From Candidatus Poseidoniaceae archaeon (GTDB taxonomy: Archaea > Thermoplasmatota > Poseidoniia > Poseidoniales > Poseidoniaceae), in assembly GCA_029250385.1 (NCBI GenBank), contig JAQXFJ010000217.1, forward strand, positions 1-27,657: a stretch of DNA of 27,657 nucleotides. The letters are read 5' to 3'. Position 1 is the first letter of the stretch; the number at the start of each line of letters is the position of its first letter. The position numbers were made by a program, and so were the translations under genes. The notes below the pieces were generated by a model. That model worked only from the letters and a program-made list of their open reading frames with translations. It was not told the origin of the DNA and searched no databases. Positions 20,094-27,493 of this stretch are shown in pieces.

Positions 20094-21530
20094 ATGAGCG
20101 AAGAAGAGATGTATATCGCAGGCGAGTGGACTAGTTCTGAAAATGGCGATTATAGCGAAGCAATAAACCCCGCAACAGGTGAAACTATTACACGAGTTCC
20201 AAAAGCGTCAGTAAATGATGTAAACCGTTGTGTTTCAGCATCCAGGGATGCTTTAGTTAGTTCTGAATGGAAGAACATTGATCCTGCACAACGAGGTAGA
20301 ATTCTCAATAAAATGGCAGCAGCTACTTATGGTGCAGCAAAAGAATTAGCCCAAATAGAATCTGAAAATAATGGGAAAACCTTTCGTGAAGCTCTATCAG
20401 AAATAAGATATGGTGCATGGACATTAGAGTACTTTGCGGGCCTTTCAGACAAAATTGAAGGCTCAACAATACCAGTTCCAGGTAATCGTCTAAATTACAC
20501 ACTTCGCCAACCACTTGGCGTAACCGCACACATTGTCCCGTGGAATTTCCCTCTCCAACTAGCTCTTCGTTCCATAGCTCCAGCATTAGCCTCCGGCTGT
20601 ACAGTAATCGCTAAGCCTGCATCATGGACTCCACTTTCTCTGTTAGCATGGATGAAGAAAATGGAAGAAGCCGATGTAGGCCTGCCAACTGGTGTTTTGC
20701 AAGTAATAACCGGTTCTGGAGGCTTGATTGGTGACGCTCTTGCAGGACACCCAGGCGTGGATGGAGTGGTACTGACTGGGGGTGTGCCAACAGGTAGGAC
20801 TGTAATGGCAAAAGCTAGTGATAATCTGACACCGGTTACTCTTGAACTTGGAGGGAAGGGGGCCAATATTGTATTCCCAGATGCGAATTTAAAATATGCC
20901 GCTAAAGCAATTTGTTTTGGTATTTTCATGAATGCCGGACAAATGTGCTGGGCAGGTTCTAGATTGATTGTCCATGAAGAGGTTCACGATGAATTAGTAG
21001 ATGCGGTCGTTGCTGAAGTGAGTAAATGGAAGGTCGGGCCAGGAATGGCTGAAGGTGTGCGTATCGGCAGCCTAGTACACACTAGCCACAGGAGTGAAGT
21101 GCTAGAAAAATTAGCTTTGGGTCTCTCTCAAGGCGGCAAGATTGTTTGTGGTGGTAATGCAGTAGATGGAGAAGGTGCTTTTATGGAAGCAACCGTTGTA
21201 ACTGGAATTGGAGCAGATAACTCATTATTCAATGATGAATTATTTGGCCCGGTTCTATCTGTAACCAAATTTTCGACAGAAGCAGAGGCATTAGAACTTG
21301 CTAATCATTCTGATTTTGGTTTACTAAATGGGATTTGGACCAACAATCTAAGCCGAGCTCACAAACTCGCTAGAGATTTAGAATCAGGAATGATTTCAAT
21401 TAATGAATACCCAATTACCTTCCCACAAACTGCGTTTACTGGATGGAAGAAATCTGGTATTGGAATAGAGCAAAGCAAGGATGCTCTAAGATTCTACACC
21501 AAGGTAAAGAATGTTAACATCAAACTTTGA
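20094..21530 (+). CDS. NAD(P)-dependent aldehyde dehydrogenase, 478 aa
   Basis: PWNFP, KPAS, LELGGK (catalytic Glu), NAGQMC (catalytic Cys), ELFGP and K.SGIG motifs. Confidence 0.95.
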   Translation: MSEEEMYIAGEWTSSENGDYSEAINPATGETITRVPKASVNDVNRCVSASRDALVSSEWKNIDPAQRGRILNKMAAATYGAAKELAQIESENNGKTFREALSEIRYGAWTLEYFAGLSDKIEGSTIPVPGNRLNYTLRQPLGVTAHIVPWNFPLQLALRSIAPALASGCTVIAKPASWTPLSLLAWMKKMEEADVGLPTGVLQVITGSGGLIGDALAGHPGVDGVVLTGGVPTGRTVMAKASDNLTPVTLELGGKGANIVFPDANLKYAAKAICFGIFMNAGQMCWAGSRLIVHEEVHDELVDAVVAEVSKWKVGPGMAEGVRIGSLVHTSHRSEVLEKLALGLSQGGKIVCGGNAVDGEGAFMEATVVTGIGADNSLFNDELFGPVLSVTKFSTEAEALELANHSDFGLLNGIWTNNLSRAHKLARDLESGMISINEYPITFPQTAFTGWKKSGIGIEQSKDALRFYTKVKNVNIKL

Positions 21531-21539
21531 GGTGAGATT

Positions 21540-22322
21540 ATGAGTGTTTCATTCAGCGATATGGGCCATGGAGTTCGCTTGATTCAGTTTTCTGGCCAGT
21601 CCGCAACACAATCATTTTCAAGAACTTTTTTGCCTAAAATCGCCAAAGCCATAGATGATGGATTAACCAACACAAGCGTTCGGGCAATGGTATTAACGGG
21701 TGAGGGCAAATTTTTCTCTGCTGGTGCAGATATCAACGCCTTTGCTAAGGCAATTGAAGACGGGGATGCTCCTCAATTAATTCGAGATCTTACTGGAGTG
21801 CTCCATCCTTTACTTGTACGAATGCGCCAATCACCTACCATTTGTGTGGCGGCTCTCAACGGCGCATGTGCAGGAGGCGGACTTGGTCTAGCCTTGGCAT
21901 GTGATGTGCGAATTGGCTCACCTAGTGCCAAGATGGCTGCTTCTTACTCTGGCATGGGCCTTTCGCCTGATGGTGGAACAACATGGTTGCTGCCTCGCTT
22001 GGTCGGTGACCAAATCGCAAGACGATTTTTCTTTGAAAATGAAATTTGGTCAGCTGAAAAAGCTAATCAATTAGGGGCAATCGATACTATTGTCGAACAA
22101 GATTCTCTCCTTGATTCTGCTCTAGAAATTGCACTCAAATGGTCCCAGTGGGGTAATCATACCAAAGAGGCAACTAAGCATCTACTAGATGTTCAATCTG
22201 TGCAAGATTTCGAGACTCATCTAAAACATGAACGTACATTGATTGAAGCAGCGGGAACTACTGATGCCTTCAAAGAAGGCGTAACGGCATTTATTGAAAA
22301 GCGTAAACCACACTTTGAGTAA
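21540..22322 (+). CDS. crotonase-fold isomerase, PaaG-like, 260 aa
   Basis: FSAGADI, NGACAGGGLGLALACD and GLSPDGGTTWLLPRLVG. Lacks both crotonase Glu and has Asp at the PaaG catalytic position. Confidence 0.8.
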   Translation: MSVSFSDMGHGVRLIQFSGQSATQSFSRTFLPKIAKAIDDGLTNTSVRAMVLTGEGKFFSAGADINAFAKAIEDGDAPQLIRDLTGVLHPLLVRMRQSPTICVAALNGACAGGGLGLALACDVRIGSPSAKMAASYSGMGLSPDGGTTWLLPRLVGDQIARRFFFENEIWSAEKANQLGAIDTIVEQDSLLDSALEIALKWSQWGNHTKEATKHLLDVQSVQDFETHLKHERTLIEAAGTTDAFKEGVTAFIEKRKPHFE

Positions 22323-23210
22323 TCACTCTGGAAGTTGGCACTCTTCTGCTTCGCCAGAGGACCAATCATAGATTCCCATACTAGTTTTTTTGCCAAGGCG
22401 ACCAGAGGCAACTAGTTTTTCCATTAATGGGTGAGGTGCGTATGAATCATCATCAAATGATTTCTGTAGATTTTTTAGAATATCTCTTCTAACATCCAAT
22501 CCAACTAAATCGGTTAGAGCTAACGGGCCCATCGGGTGTTTGTAACCTAACACCATCGCAGTGTCGATATCTTTTGCGCTTGCAACTCCGTCTGCAAGCA
22601 TTCGAATTGCCTCATTTCCTAACACAACTCCTAATCTAGATGTAGCGAATCCTGGAATGTTATTTACTAAAATTGTGGTTTTATTCATTTGCATACCTGC
22701 TTGTTGAGCGATTTCAATAGTCTTCTGTGAACATAAATCGTGTCTAACTAACTCTAACAATTTCATTATCGGTACGGGATTAAAAAAATGCATACCGATG
22801 ACTCTTTCTGGACATCCTGAGGCAGTGGCTAAATCGGCAATTGAAAGAGATGATGTGTTAGTTGCTAGTATGCAACTTTGATTGGTGTATTTTCCTAGTT
22901 GCTCAAAGATTTGAGATTTTAATTTTGGAATCTCTGGTACTGCTTCAATAACTAAATCAGCTTGTTTTACCGCTGCTTTCATATCGGTAAATTGGGTTAT
23001 GTTTTGTGACCAATCTTGTTTTTGTTGCTGAGTTGTTTTCCCTCTTGCAATCCCCTTTTCCCAAAATGAATCAATAGTTTTCATACCCTTTTCTAAGCTC
23101 TCTGGAAAAGCATCAAACAGGTTAGTTTGCCATCCACTTTGAGCACAAACCTGGGCAATACCTGCCCCCATTGTTCCAGCGCCAATAACAGTCACGGTCT
23201 TAATCGACAT
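22323..23210 (-). CDS. 3-hydroxyacyl-CoA dehydrogenase (PaaH/Hbd-like), 295 aa
   Basis: GAGTMGAGIAQ, EAVPE, ATNTSSLSI, GMHFFNP, GYKHPMGPL and GRLGKK motifs. Confidence 0.94.
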   Translation of the reverse strand: MSIKTVTVIGAGTMGAGIAQVCAQSGWQTNLFDAFPESLEKGMKTIDSFWEKGIARGKTTQQQKQDWSQNITQFTDMKAAVKQADLVIEAVPEIPKLKSQIFEQLGKYTNQSCILATNTSSLSIADLATASGCPERVIGMHFFNPVPIMKLLELVRHDLCSQKTIEIAQQAGMQMNKTTILVNNIPGFATSRLGVVLGNEAIRMLADGVASAKDIDTAMVLGYKHPMGPLALTDLVGLDVRRDILKNLQKSFDDDSYAPHPLMEKLVASGRLGKKTSMGIYDWSSGEAEECQLPE

Positions 23211-23232
23211 GGTCAACCCAGTAGGTTAAACT

Positions 23233-24156
23233 TCATGATGCTTGCTTGTCGTTTTTGCTTTTTGACTGAGCGATAAAAACTCCACCTGTGATAAGAACGA
23301 AAGCAAACGCCAATGACAATCCAAGTTTTTCGTCAAGCAATAGATATCCTCCCAAGATTCCAAACGGCGGGACTAGATAAACATACAAAGCACTCATCGA
23401 GGCACCTATTTTGATTATACCATCAGCGAACCACACATACGCAACAACGGTAGAAAAGATTGCTAGAAACACTATTCCAATCCAGCCATCTGGACTTGGC
23501 CAAATAAATCCTTGTGTAACAGTTTCAACAGCCATTATCGGGGTCAATAATATCAGACCCGCTACAGATGACCAGACGGTTAATTCTAGCGGATTTAATG
23601 GCTTAGTGGAATTTTGTTTAGGTTCAGTCATGGTTTTCTTCATTAAAATCGTGTTACAAGCCCATGCAAGGGCTGCACCTGCAATCAGCAAGTCCCCAAT
23701 AGCACGATCCACAAAGTCTATGTCCACATTGGGTGAGTAGTAAAATAATATTCCAACTCCGGTAATTCCCATTAATAATCCAGTGATTAAATTCCGATGC
23801 ATACTTTCCTTAAGGAATATAACTGCTAATATTGCAGTAAAAATAGGATTGAAGGTAATCATGAGTGAAGCATCACCAGCTGCGGTATATTGCATTCCAA
23901 ACATGAAGAATGCTTGATAGACACAAGTTGAGAAAAACCCGATCAGAAATAATATCTTCCACTCTGATTTATTTGGAAACATCCACTGCCTTGAAAATTT
24001 AAGATAAGCCAAAAAGCAGAATGTGGCTATGATATAACGAATCCAAGCGGCGGTAAAAGGTAGAACATCATTGGCTACAACTCTGCCTGCCGGCCAACCA
24101 AATCCCCATATTACTGCAACTGTAAACAATTTTAAGTGAGTTGCTAAATTACTCAT
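23233..24156 (-). CDS. EamA/DMT-family transporter, 307 aa
   Basis: Ten TMs in two repeats; IWG..W, G.QYT.AG.AS, PIFTA.LA..FL.E and LLDEKL motifs. Confidence 0.9.
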   Translation of the reverse strand: MSNLATHLKLFTVAVIWGFGWPAGRVVANDVLPFTAAWIRYIIATFCFLAYLKFSRQWMFPNKSEWKILFLIGFFSTCVYQAFFMFGMQYTAAGDASLMITFNPIFTAILAVIFLKESMHRNLITGLLMGITGVGILFYYSPNVDIDFVDRAIGDLLIAGAALAWACNTILMKKTMTEPKQNSTKPLNPLELTVWSSVAGLILLTPIMAVETVTQGFIWPSPDGWIGIVFLAIFSTVVAYVWFADGIIKIGASMSALYVYLVPPFGILGGYLLLDEKLGLSLAFAFVLITGGVFIAQSKSKNDKQAS

Positions 24157-24710
24157 TCAAACCGCTCCAAACCTAATTGGAGCATTCTTGATCGAGGTAA
24201 GCCTATTTCTGGTAATCCTTTCGCCGGAGCATACATCTTGAGTCCTTCGATGCGCGAGACGTATAAGCCATAACTAGCCATGTCTCCTAGATTGAACGGG
24301 GTTTCTAGTCCCAAATCTGTCAGCGCTTGACAGGCTTTTTCACTGTAGATGGGGTACAGGTTAGTGGAAAAATGCATCCATTCAGAAATTCGCTGAGTGT
24401 CTATTTCGTCAATAGTAAGCAAATGTTCTAGCAGGGCCACATCCGGGTAAGAAACAGTTCGAATAATCATTTCAATCTCATTGACTATTTCTTCTGGGAA
24501 GGCAAAGGGCTTTCGGTTTGACCATTCTTCTGCGACCTGAATGTGTTCCATAGATGCCTTGTCTTGTATGGCAAACAAAGTTTTGGAGTAATCTTCGTCA
24601 TCGATACTATCAGCGACTAAAGTGGGTAATTGTTCATAGAAATTTTCACATCTTTCGACGTTGATACCGTACAGCGAGACTGGGATCATTTGACCACCGT
24701 AAAGATTCAA
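24153..24710 (-). CDS. hypothetical protein, possibly a degenerate HhH-like fold, 178-185 aa
   Basis: 4-bp overlaps with boxB (TTG 24710) and eamA (ATGA). Alternative ATG 24689 has a GGTGG SD. Motif ISEWMHFSTNLYPIYSEKACQAL. Confidence 0.7.
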   Translation of the reverse strand: MNLYGGQMIPVSLYGINVERCENFYEQLPTLVADSIDDEDYSKTLFAIQDKASMEHIQVAEEWSNRKPFAFPEEIVNEIEMIIRTVSYPDVALLEHLLTIDEIDTQRISEWMHFSTNLYPIYSEKACQALTDLGLETPFNLGDMASYGLYVSRIEGLKMYAPAKGLPEIGLPRSRMLQLGLERFE

Positions 24711-25867
24711 GCGCTGGCGCCAATGCCAGAGTCGATTTGTCTTGTAGACATTGGTTTGTTAGCAATCCACTCTTGATTGAACAATTCTTTGAGGTCTATT
24801 TCGTCTTGTTTCCTAGGCATTACTTCGTGCAGATAAGCTTGCCAATCGTCGTCGTTGCCTTGGAAAGGAGTTCCGTCCACGTTGAAGTTGCTGCCTTTGG
24901 CTGCCCCGATGTCGCGGTTAAAGTTTTCATGAGGAACATACAGTTTCTCGACACCCTCTGGTAAGTAGCCACAAAGTTTCTCAACTTCTCTGACAATCTC
25001 ATCATGGTAATGTCCACGGCCTTCTTCATTGAGTACTTCTTTGTTAACTTCAATTCCAGCATCTTGTTTTTTACGTTCGTCCCAGCGTCCTTTGACTCCC
25101 CACACGTATGCCCAATGAGCAGATGATGAAGCATCGACACCAAACAGGTCGTGAGCGGTTGATACCCACTTGTTGATGTATCTCTGAAGCATGTCTAGCG
25201 GTATGACACCAGCCTTGATGATTCTCCTAAGGCCATTGGAACCAGTTCCCAAGTGGAATGATTCTTCTTTGAGCATTGGTCCCATTGAAGCAGCAAGTGG
25301 TTTGAATGCAGAAGTCGATAGCATTCCGAGTTGAAATTTACCGTCACGGTCAACAAACATAGTGTAACAAAAGAAGTCGAGCCAGTGAGGCATTGGGCGA
25401 TTGAAAGCACCAAGTAATCGGTCGCCATCTTGCGCATTTCTTTCTAACAGTTTTTGCGCCTCTCTACGTCCTTGCTGGCCAAAATAGGTCATCAATAGGT
25501 AGGCCATTTGCCATCCATGTCGCTGTTCTTCAGCCATGATTCTAGCAGCAGCATATCGGTCGTAATCAGTGGGTGCTGATGTGAGTAGATGTCTTTGTTG
25601 TTCAACAGATGCAAATTCTGTGTCACCCTGAACAGTGATCATTGCAATTAGCGCATCTCGCATACTTTGGTGTGGTACCTGGAGTGCTCTTTCCCACTTA
25701 GCTCGGCCTTCATAGTCGCCAAATTCGATTACATCTCCAGCTCGCTCCCAGTCAAACAGTACTGAGAGTTCAAAGTCTCCTAGCCAATCAGGGTTGAATC
25801 CAACTCTTTGTTGCCAATCGCCAAAATTTGTTATCCATTCATCCCAAGTGTTTGGTAGGTTGTCCAT
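24707..25867 (-). CDS. boxB: BoxB-like di-iron acyl-CoA epoxidase (PaaA/PaaC/BoxB ferritin-like family), 386 aa
   Basis: QGDTEFASVEQQRHL, EEQRH, LL..YFG..GR.EA..LLER, WLDFF.YT.FVDRDGKFQL, S.F.PLA and MLKEESFH, collinear with BoxB motifs as I recall them. SD GGGGTG precedes ATG 25867. Confidence 0.88.
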   Translation of the reverse strand: MDNLPNTWDEWITNFGDWQQRVGFNPDWLGDFELSVLFDWERAGDVIEFGDYEGRAKWERALQVPHQSMRDALIAMITVQGDTEFASVEQQRHLLTSAPTDYDRYAAARIMAEEQRHGWQMAYLLMTYFGQQGRREAQKLLERNAQDGDRLLGAFNRPMPHWLDFFCYTMFVDRDGKFQLGMLSTSAFKPLAASMGPMLKEESFHLGTGSNGLRRIIKAGVIPLDMLQRYINKWVSTAHDLFGVDASSSAHWAYVWGVKGRWDERKKQDAGIEVNKEVLNEEGRGHYHDEIVREVEKLCGYLPEGVEKLYVPHENFNRDIGAAKGSNFNVDGTPFQGNDDDWQAYLHEVMPRKQDEIDLKELFNQEWIANKPMSTRQIDSGIGASA

Positions 25868-25903
25868 ACACACCCCAGGAGTGGGTCTTGCTTATTGTCT
25901 TTG

Positions 25904-25915
25904 CGAACATGTTCG
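25904..25915. promoter_or_regulatory. perfect 12-bp palindrome CGAACATGTTCG, candidate operator
   Basis: Exact self-complementarity, in the 53-bp gap between the HTH gene and boxB, 37-48 bp upstream of the boxB ATG. Confidence 0.55.
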
Positions 25916-25920
25916 TATTT

Positions 25921-26532
25921 CTATATAATTTCGTCATAAAATGTGTCCACTATTTTACTTTCGATAGCATGAAGCATAACTGAGATTGTAGATTTGGAGG
26001 AACTGGTAATTTCAGCCAACTGGGTGATTGAAATTTCTCTAGGTATGTTCCAATATCCTTTGCGTTTGGCCAATTCAAAAATCTGTGTTTGTCTTGTAGT
26101 TAGTAGCTTATCATTGCTTGAGCGAGTTGACTTCAAACGCATCGGTATCTCGTCTGAATTTATTTCCTCGATTAATTGTTTAGCTTGACTGGGAGAACAC
26201 TGTATTGTCCAGTCAGCCCATCCATCTATCACTTCAAAAGGAGTTCTTGGGACCACACCAACAACGCGCAAGGCTTTGATAAATCCACCACCTCCACTGG
26301 CTATTGTCACTGTAGCCTTGTTAACGTCAAGTAAATTGACGGACTCCACGCCAGATAAATGCTCTAATTGGTTTAGTAATAGTTCATCAGTACTAATTTG
26401 AGCTGTCCCTCTCCCCTTGCCAAGAGGCATGGTTTCGATTATCTGCAATGTGGATGATGGACTTTCACGAGTAGCTTCGCCAGCCCAATGTCCATCCGGT
26501 AATCGAACTTCAATTCTTACCACTTGGGACAT
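25921..26532 (-). CDS. Bat-like (HTH_10) archaeal transcription regulator, 203 aa
   Basis: C-terminal LTTRQ.QI..LA...GYWNIPREISITQLAE...SSKSTIS..L..IESKI matches HTH_10. ATG 26532 avoids overlap with glpX (alternative 26559). Confidence 0.88.
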   Translation of the reverse strand: MSQVVRIEVRLPDGHWAGEATRESPSSTLQIIETMPLGKGRGTAQISTDELLLNQLEHLSGVESVNLLDVNKATVTIASGGGGFIKALRVVGVVPRTPFEVIDGWADWTIQCSPSQAKQLIEEINSDEIPMRLKSTRSSNDKLLTTRQTQIFELAKRKGYWNIPREISITQLAEITSSSKSTISVMLHAIESKIVDTFYDEII

Positions 26533-26536
26533 ATAA

Positions 26537-27493
26537 TCACTTTTTGTGAATACGGTCATGCCTTGTCAAAGTGCCTGCTTGTACGTCAATTAGTTCTGCA
26601 TAGGTGTGCATATCGCCGTTTTCAAAAATTTTCACACCCGGTAGGTAGCCATCACAAACTCCAGAGGCGACAAAAATCGCGTCATCTGAGCGACATAAAT
26701 CTTTAGCATCCCAAAGCCTGGTTAAATCATCATCTATCATTTGTTCGGCACGCGCTTCTTCTTCATCAGATCTAAACACTAATCGCCCTTCAAAAACACC
26801 ACCGATTCCGCGTAGTGCAGTGGCAGTGATTACTCCTTCAGGTGCAGCTCCAATTCCCAGTAACATGTCATGTTCACCATCTGGTCTTGCAGCCCAAAGT
26901 GCAGCCGAGATGTCACCGTCTCCAAGTAGGTGGAGTTGTGCTCCAACTTGTTTAATCTCCTTGAATAAGTCAGTATGGCGCTTTCTATCAAGTGCAATAA
27001 TACGAACTTCTTCAATTGGTTTGTCTAGCACAGATGCGACTTGTTCGATGTTGTATGCAACCCCTGCATCAAGATTAATGTGGCCTTCCATTTCTGGCCC
27101 TGCGGCAATTTTGTCCATGTAGCAATCAGGAGCGTGGAGCAGAGTGCCTCTTGGTGCTGCTGCTAGAACTGCAATTGAATTTGGTAAGTTATCTGCACAA
27201 TTATTTGTACATTCTAGCGGGTCGACAGCTATGTCGATAGCCGGTACTAGTGGGTTGCCTATTTCTGAACCAAGTTGTTCACCGATAAAGAGCATCGGCG
27301 CTTCGTCCCTTTCACCTTCACCAATGGCGACTCGACCATCGAATGGGACTTTGTCAAACGTACTGCGCATTGCTTCTACAGCCGCATCATCAGCAGCCAT
27401 TTTGTCGCCTTTACCGCGCCATTTTGCACTTGCTATTGCGGCCATGTCCACGGCGTCGAGAAAGTGGTCAGATAGGTCCGATACTGTGCCCAT
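26537..27493 (-). CDS. glpX: class II fructose-1,6-bisphosphatase GlpX, 318 aa
   Basis: GKGDKMAADDAAVEAMR, GEGERDEAPML, DIAVDPLE, DR.RH, DGD and GIGAAPEGVITA motifs. Confidence 0.93.
   Translation of the reverse strand: MGTVSDLSDHFLDAVDMAAIASAKWRGKGDKMAADDAAVEAMRSTFDKVPFDGRVAIGEGERDEAPMLFIGEQLGSEIGNPLVPAIDIAVDPLECTNNCADNLPNSIAVLAAAPRGTLLHAPDCYMDKIAAGPEMEGHINLDAGVAYNIEQVASVLDKPIEEVRIIALDRKRHTDLFKEIKQVGAQLHLLGDGDISAALWAARPDGEHDMLLGIGAAPEGVITATALRGIGGVFEGRLVFRSDEEEARAEQMIDDDLTRLWDAKDLCRSDDAIFVASGVCDGYLPGVKIFENGDMHTYAELIDVQAGTLTRHDRIHKK

Follow-up and report, generated by a model that had tools for sequence, protein, structure and literature searches.

Few heterotrophs of the surface ocean are as abundant as the Marine Group II (MGII) archaea; to our knowledge none of these has been cultured, and their diet has been inferred from genomes alone. 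The locus described here raises the question of whether such archaea attack aromatic coenzyme A (CoA) esters with oxygen, and by which enzyme. It lies on contig JAQXFJ010000217.1 of assembly GCA_029250385.1 (Candidatus Poseidoniaceae archaeon), of which positions 1 to 27,657 of the forward strand, 27,657 nucleotides in all and called the window below, were analyzed; the contig belongs to a Poseidoniales (MGII) genome of 1.75 Mb that is 75% complete. Near the end of the window a gene on the minus strand encodes a protein of 386 aa that a first-pass annotation had described as a compact archaeal epoxidase of the BoxB type. Within the PaaA/BoxB family the oxygenase falls in the BoxB clade, where it belongs to a separate branch of short proteins; it and the bacterial benzoyl-CoA 2,3-epoxidase are not orthologues. 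The preferred reading, to which a probability of roughly 0.5 is assigned, is a catalytically competent class I di-iron oxygenase of an aryl-type CoA ester that would feed neighboring crotonase, aldehyde dehydrogenase and 3-hydroxyacyl-CoA dehydrogenase steps.

Di-iron site of the oxygenase

The start methionine of the open reading frame (ORF; coordinates in Table 1) is common to the 386-aa orthologues, and an alternative GTG start is possible two codons 5' of the ATG. All four motifs GDTE, EEQRH, VDRDG and EESFH occur in the protein. The di-iron ligands of BoxB are E120, E150, H153, D211, E240 and H243 (PMC5489048). Alignment with the BoxB chain 3PER using HMMER (E=2.3e-52) placed E84, E114, H117, D173, E202 and H205 of the archaeal protein on these six residues, in the order that the first-pass annotation had read from the sequence; the neighboring differences which it had listed (TEF vs TEP, EEQRH vs EEGRH, EESFH vs EEAHH) are correct against 3PER. 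The spacing of the ligands is the same as in BoxB (E-30-E-x2-H and D-29-E-x2-H). The six ligands were invariant in an alignment of 18 sequences with 31-84% identity to the query, and were kept in 19 of the 19 rows of a second alignment to which SSO1313-like and PaaA-like proteins had been added. The agreement with BoxB is far beyond chance, and no ligand of the predicted, strongly conserved di-iron site is missing. The protein also shows the pattern of class I di-iron carboxylate oxygenases, two E/D...ExxH motifs carried by paired long helices.

Classification and predicted structure

The oxygenase matches the Pfam family PaaA_PaaC (PF05138) over residues 66-265 with 60.4 bits (gathering threshold 28.5 bits). 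On the BoxB equivalog model TIGR03225 it reaches 220.5 bits, under the curated cut-off of 499.1 bits, with only profile positions 69-326 of 471 matched; on the PaaA equivalog model TIGR02156 it reaches 41.3 bits, under the cut-off of 280. The positive controls P0148 and P0153 scored 908.5 and 672.2 bits on TIGR03225, an MGIIb orthologue of the oxygenase scored 219 bits, and every short-type protein tested fell between 150 and 234 bits. Proteins passing the BoxB model are 465-475 aa long, as against 386 aa here, which bears out the earlier observation that the archaeal protein is shorter than BoxB. A member of the P0148 cluster sits between a 551-aa crotonase of the BoxC type and a ferredoxin/FNR fusion of the BoxA type, which is the canonical order BoxC-BoxB-BoxA.

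An AlphaFold2 model of the oxygenase, computed from the 18-sequence alignment, has a mean predicted local distance difference test (pLDDT) score of 94.3 and a BoxB-like fold. The ligands lie on four long helices, with E84 on helix 67-97, E114 and H117 on 101-128, D173 on 162-183, and E202 and H205 on 189-219. In a Foldseek search with this model the first 11 matches were all BoxB chains (E 5e-22; template modeling (TM) score by query 0.77-0.86), followed by SSO1313 (4MUD), PaaA and PaaC.

A maximum-likelihood tree of 37 proteins was midpoint-rooted, with PaaA-like proteins on one side of the root. SSO1313-like proteins branch next, and the short types together with canonical BoxB form one clade (support 100/100). 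Within it canonical BoxB is a tight clade (100/99) nested among short-type bacterial sequences, and the Poseidoniales proteins are monophyletic (99/94), divided into MGIIa and MGIIb, which indicates vertical descent. The Poseidoniales proteins are thus placed in a separate clade of the shared superclade and not inside the canonical BoxB clade. Since canonical BoxB sits among short types, recent trimming of BoxB does not seem to have produced the short form, and the long form is, if anything, the derived one; this is tentative, the deep branching order resting on long branches.

These results bear on two other identities. The first is a structural subunit without catalysis, like PaaC, or a ferritin-like protein for the storage of iron, which would agree with membership in PaaA_PaaC and with the loss of the ligands in one distant short-type relative, P0189. 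In the archaeal proteins none of the six ligands varies, PaaC comes far behind BoxB among the fold-search matches, and the oxygenase is the only member of PF05138 found in the genome of the window; hence no PaaC was found, and no catalytic partner that such a subunit could support. The oxygenase groups with BoxB and not with PaaA, PaaC or other ferritin-like families, so that the PaaC-like or ferritin-like grouping weighed in the first-pass annotation was not found. This identity was rejected on the invariant ligands and the single family member and is extremely improbable. P0189 itself (367 aa, from a metagenome-assembled genome (MAG) of Myxococcota) has degenerate ligand positions, which would make it an inactive, PaaC-like offshoot inside the BoxB clade.

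The second is a functional BoxB, i.e., a benzoyl-CoA 2,3-epoxidase in a minimal archaeal Box pathway with a single-domain crotonase for BoxC, an aldehyde dehydrogenase as BoxD and a general ferredoxin or flavoprotein for BoxA. BoxB is the closest characterized relative by sequence and fold, and the ligands are kept together with Q116, T119, S123, F193 and F203 (BoxB numbering). Against it stand the score under the equivalog cut-off and the position outside the canonical clade.

Active-site residues and substrate

In BoxB, contact with the benzoyl group is attributed to Q116, T119, S123, F193, F203/F206 and T210 (PMC5489048). The PaaA-like outgroup rows of the alignment share Q116, T119, S123 and F193, and the use of these four as proof of a benzoyl-CoA substrate was rejected; being conserved across the whole superfamily, they are uninformative on the substrate. 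The positions that mark canonical BoxB in these alignments are P121, which adjoins ligand E120, and T210, which adjoins ligand D211. In the oxygenase they are F85 and V172, so that the canonical state is absent; all archaeal short-type and SSO1313-like rows have F at the first and V, I or L at the second position, and P and T occur only with the canonical BoxB architecture. The replacement of both residues weighs further against a functional BoxB. Additional changes flanking the ligands relative to BoxB are G151Q, A241S and H242F.

Because BoxB-specific positions beside the ligands differ (P121F, G151Q, T210V, A241S, H242F), a substrate or regiochemistry different from that of BoxB is plausible. 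Of the earlier claim of an active oxygenase with altered specificity, the intact di-iron site and the plausibility of the altered specificity stand; the word 'epoxidase' is provisional.

The same positions bring in a third alternative, in which the substrate is a non-aromatic acyl-CoA, i.e., an aliphatic, branched or alicyclic ester that is hydroxylated, desaturated or epoxidized, giving an O2-dependent side entry to beta-oxidation. MGII archaea are thought to use beta-oxidation for lipids. The active-site state F121 with V or I at 210 is that of the SSO1313-like proteins and not that of BoxB, which fits a non-aromatic ester; on the other side, both characterized members of the family attack aromatic rings, and the pocket aromatics F155, F165, F166 and Y168 are kept. 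On present evidence a non-aromatic substrate is judged unlikely.

The partner protein U178

The gene that follows the oxygenase encodes U178, a protein of 178 aa, and the pairing of the two is the most conserved linkage across the phylum. The probable ATG start of U178 (Table 1) lies 17 nt after the oxygenase stop. A TTG at 24710, which overlaps the oxygenase stop, was considered as an alternative start and is unlikely, the 178-aa gene of the relatives beginning at the downstream ATG. No Pfam family was matched by U178. Its predicted model is all-helical (pLDDT 86), and the U178 alignment contains no conserved Cys or His cluster and no invariant lysine. A Foldseek search of the model against the PDB gave nothing significant. 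An exhaustive comparison with VIA-align matched the Thermotoga OGG Tm1821 over 157 residues at Z 8.1 and listed many further HhH-GPD glycosylases at lower scores, a Z of 8 being within the range that VIA-align calls common for helical proteins; an Atlas search gave a TM score of 0.68 to an OGG-fold cluster. The modeled likeness to OGG2/HhH-GPD proteins is suggestive. Prediction of a complex between the oxygenase and U178 scored 0.00, which counts neither for nor against binding.

This likeness, with several glycosylases listed among the matches, and the strength of the pairing would suit a system in which the oxygenase and an OGG-fold partner act on a nucleotide or nucleic-acid base, comparable to MiaE, a di-iron hydroxylase of tRNA. 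Homology to CoA-ester oxygenases runs along the whole of the oxygenase and takes in the C-terminal domain of BoxB, and its linkage to CoA enzymes recurs; together with the commonness of such Z scores and the lack of an invariant lysine in U178, this makes action on nucleic acids very unlikely.

Gene neighborhood

The genes around the oxygenase and the ligand codons are listed in Table 1.

Table 1. Position of the oxygenase gene, its di-iron ligand codons and its neighbors in the window
Feature	Position	Strand	Remarks
Short BoxB-like di-iron oxygenase (P0001)	24707..25867	minus	386 aa + stop; coding 24710-25867, ATG at 25867, TGA at 24707-24709
Ligand codon E84	25616-25618	minus	BoxB E120
Ligand codon E114	25526-25528	minus	BoxB E150
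Ligand codon H117	25517-25519	minus	BoxB H153
Ligand codon D173	25349-25351	minus	BoxB D211
Ligand codon E202	25262-25264	minus	BoxB E240
Ligand codon H205	25253-25255	minus	BoxB H243
U178, 178-aa all-helical partner, OGG2/HhH-GPD-like predicted fold	24153..24689	minus	No Pfam match; probable start ATG 24689
EamA/DMT transporter	23233..24156	minus	EamA 152 bits; MGIIa and f2 loci only, not MGIIb
3-hydroxyacyl-CoA dehydrogenase	22323..23216	minus	3HCDH_N + 3HCDH; PRK09260 330 bits, PaaH 222 bits, both below cut-off
Crotonase, alternative-type oxepin-CoA hydrolase/PaaG-like	21540..22322	plus	NF046063 172 bits vs cut-off 300; TIGR02280 151 bits vs cut-off 345
Aldehyde dehydrogenase, generic class	20094..21530	plus	Best models BADH and StyD-like
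HTH_10 regulator directly upstream of the oxygenase	25921..26559	minus	HTH_10 42.6 bits

Synteny was compared across 10 Poseidoniales loci and 10 loci from other Thermoplasmatota. The order oxygenase, U178 and 3-hydroxyacyl-CoA dehydrogenase, with a crotonase and an aldehyde dehydrogenase alongside, was found in all 10 Poseidoniales loci; the dehydrogenase follows U178 immediately in MGIIb and comes after EamA in MGIIa and f2. In the other Thermoplasmatota loci U178 was detected in 8 of 10, the dehydrogenase in 4 and a crotonase in 6. A tally of neighbor families in high-GC Thermoplasmatota loci was set aside, ORF calling being unreliable there. The HTH_10 regulator adjoins the oxygenase in MGIIa loci only; in MGIIb and f2 a crotonase takes its place.

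In five of seven MGIIb loci a flavoprotein of about 415 aa, the generic crotonase ECH2, the oxygenase, U178 and the dehydrogenase lie on one strand. The ECH2 crotonase is 65-82% identical across the order. In MGIIa the flavoprotein and ECH2 are separated from the oxygenase by MoaE, MoaC, GlpX and the HTH_10 gene, and the window's own genome has them on a different contig, C329 (L005:165-3260, with the flavoprotein at 165-1409), beside a DeoC-type aldolase. The aldehyde dehydrogenase is 72% identical within MGIIa and only about 33-37% in the f2 and MGIIb loci, compared with 61-73% for the flanking dehydrogenase and 38-58% for the crotonase across these loci; it looks non-orthologous at a conserved position, as judged by these identities.

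The classes of the neighbors suit ring hydrolysis, aldehyde oxidation and 3-hydroxyadipyl-CoA oxidation, which is in line with a functional BoxB. For the crotonases, however, the BoxC model gives lower scores than the generic, PaaG and oxepin-hydrolase ones. A non-aromatic substrate would agree with the generic beta-oxidation types among the conserved neighbors (PaaF-like crotonase, 3-hydroxyacyl-CoA dehydrogenase), whereas the aldehyde dehydrogenase and the crotonase resembling PaaG and oxepin hydrolase suit ring opening better than plain beta-oxidation.

In an MGIIa relative a gene for a 350-aa Rieske ring-hydroxylating oxygenase alpha subunit (L009:3198-4250, minus strand) was seen about 6 kb upstream of the oxygenase on a 2 Mb contig. 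The NCBIfam model that it matches best is GbcA-like, with 83 bits and thus far short of the cut-off, and its position corresponds to one past the end of the window.

Search for pathway partners

No BoxA equivalog scored over the cut-off in the window's genome and four relatives more than 90% complete, which gave generic FNR-like matches only. In the window's own genome no BoxC equivalog was found over the cut-off, only generic crotonase matches, and no benzoate-CoA ligase equivalog. These absences in the genomes searched tell against a functional BoxB, and with the scores, the tree position and the residues given above they make it a doubtful identity; from the claim of a BoxB-type epoxidase there remain the BoxB-like fold and the intact ligands. 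ECH2 was considered as one half of BoxC and is not specifically supported, with 75 bits on the BoxC model and about 160 bits on generic hydratase models for the MGIIb orthologue.

No PaaK equivalog was found in the window's genome and the four relatives more than 90% complete. A supply of aryl-CoA via indolepyruvate:ferredoxin oxidoreductase (IOR) was dismissed, no IOR equivalog being present in the five genomes, and so was a CoA ligase or thiolase linked to the oxygenase: 12 genomes do contain AMP-binding and thiolase genes, but all at more than 15 kb from it. Two AMP-binding matches were found in the MGIIb genome G027. That no genes for aromatic-acid activation were found would suit a non-aromatic substrate. 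The search for partners by family covered those named above and not PaaB, PaaD and PaaE.

Distribution and expression

A search of 201 Poseidoniales genomes detected the oxygenase gene in 196, with all 24 genera and 59 of the 61 high-quality genomes represented; nearly all have it in a single place. A core gene in streamlined genomes of 1.3-2.1 Mb suggests a common substrate, a further point in favor of a non-aromatic ester. Several other Thermoplasmatota families also have the gene; no match to the PaaA_PaaC family was found in any of eight genomes of family f4 (1.0-1.4 Mb), the only other family sampled from the class. Rare bacterial short-type relatives come from MAGs of an unclassified bacterium, Betaproteobacteria and Planctomycetota.

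Contigs from four marine metatranscriptomes cover the oxygenase gene with 95-99% identity, and three of these contigs span the junction between the oxygenase and U178; the contigs were built by an assembler from RNA libraries, in which DNA carry-over is possible. In three of the four runs no other part of the stretch reached the contig depth of the oxygenase. No run covered positions 25888-26143 of the window, which hold the spacer preceding the oxygenase and the 3' portion of the HTH_10 gene. A Red Sea metatranscriptome study lists an MGII 'boxB' among the highly expressed genes (PMC5069720); apart from this name in passing, no mention of the oxygenase was found in the MGII genomics and transcription papers searched.

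Proposed function

In the preferred reading, an oxygenase of an aryl-type CoA ester, the protein would bind an acyl-CoA thioester, most likely an aromatic one of the benzoyl type, and would use O2 and take up two electrons from a source that is not BoxA. A candidate for this source is the FAD/NAD(P)-binding protein of about 415 aa which heads the operon in most MGIIb loci checked. One oxygen atom would be inserted, by ring epoxidation or hydroxylation, and the product would be opened or hydrated by the neighboring crotonases and then oxidized by the aldehyde dehydrogenase, after which the 3-hydroxyacyl-CoA dehydrogenase would pass it to steps of the beta-oxidation type. U178 would be an accessory protein.

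Several observations weigh against this assignment. The benzoyl-contacting residues are superfamily-wide and so carry no information, and T210, which orients the ring in BoxB, is replaced by V or I in the short types. Neither the aldehyde dehydrogenase nor the crotonases and other accessory enzymes reach an equivalog cut-off, the aldehyde dehydrogenase is not clearly orthologous between MGIIa and MGIIb, the FAD/NAD(P)-binding flavoprotein has only a weak match to NAD_binding_8, and the neighbors may be no more than genes of ordinary beta-oxidation. The genomes searched yielded no aryl-CoA ligase, PaaK or IOR, and the near-complete MGIIa genome G003 has a single match of the AMP-binding (acyl-CoA synthetase) type. 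The bacterial short-type homologues checked (L015:7267-9137 and L016-L019; 47-52% identical) stand alone: no U178, crotonase, dehydrogenase or other CoA-pathway neighbor was found at their loci, and one adjoins a TetR regulator. Given the score below the cut-off, the position outside the canonical clade, the partners that were not found and the uninformative residues, the identity of the substrate, and with it the terms 'epoxidase' and 'benzoyl-CoA', is inferred.

A wider proposal is that the oxygenase, U178 and the flavoprotein of about 415 aa together form an undescribed aryl- or acyl-CoA oxygenase system, which would represent an older state that gave rise to bacterial BoxAB/BoxC through insertions and the recruitment of partners, and which would provide MGII, the most abundant planktonic archaea, with a core O2-dependent route for aromatic dissolved organic matter (DOM). 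This is put forward as a speculative and rather unlikely possibility. In any case a near-universal di-iron oxygenase that is seen in marine RNA libraries marks a concrete gap in the picture of the MGII diet. If aromatic CoA esters are attacked, MGII would take part in the turnover of aromatic DOM via a pathway unlike the bacterial Box and Paa pathways. For enzymology the protein is a BoxB-type scaffold of reduced size whose partners and metal-adjacent residues differ from those of BoxB, and many natural variants of it exist.

Comparison with known systems

BoxB of Azoarcus/Aromatoleum evansii, the oxygenase component of its benzoyl-CoA 2,3-epoxidase (PDB 3PER, 3PM5, 3Q1G; TIGR03225), has the same six ligands at identical spacing and belongs to the same superclade; the fold is common to both, including the C-terminal domain, with about 30-33% identity over the structural alignment, and Q116, T119, S123, F193 and F203 are kept in the archaeal oxygenase. 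The latter is about 90 residues shorter: an N-terminal segment of about 40 aa, two inserts within the chain and the tail at the C terminus are absent. Its gene is followed by that of a 178-aa protein with a predicted OGG-like fold, whereas the canonical locus is BoxC-BoxB-BoxA.

PaaA of E. coli, the catalytic subunit of the phenylacetyl-CoA 1,2-epoxidase PaaABCDE (PDB 3PW1, 3PVR; TIGR02156), has PF05138 and the ligand pattern in common with the archaeal oxygenase, and the neighboring archaeal crotonase and dehydrogenase resemble PaaG/oxepin hydrolase and PaaH. PaaA itself is more distant, with a TM score of only about 0.5 and 41 bits for the archaeal protein against the cut-off of 280.

SSO1313 of Sulfolobus solfataricus (PDB 4MUD; uncharacterized) has only 235 aa and consists of the four-helix core without the C-terminal domain of the BoxB type, with 71 bits to the query. 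It is likewise archaeal, has intact ligands and shows F121 and V/I210 as in the short types; it is the next branch out in the tree, with relatives of about 256-281 aa in Thermoplasmatota.

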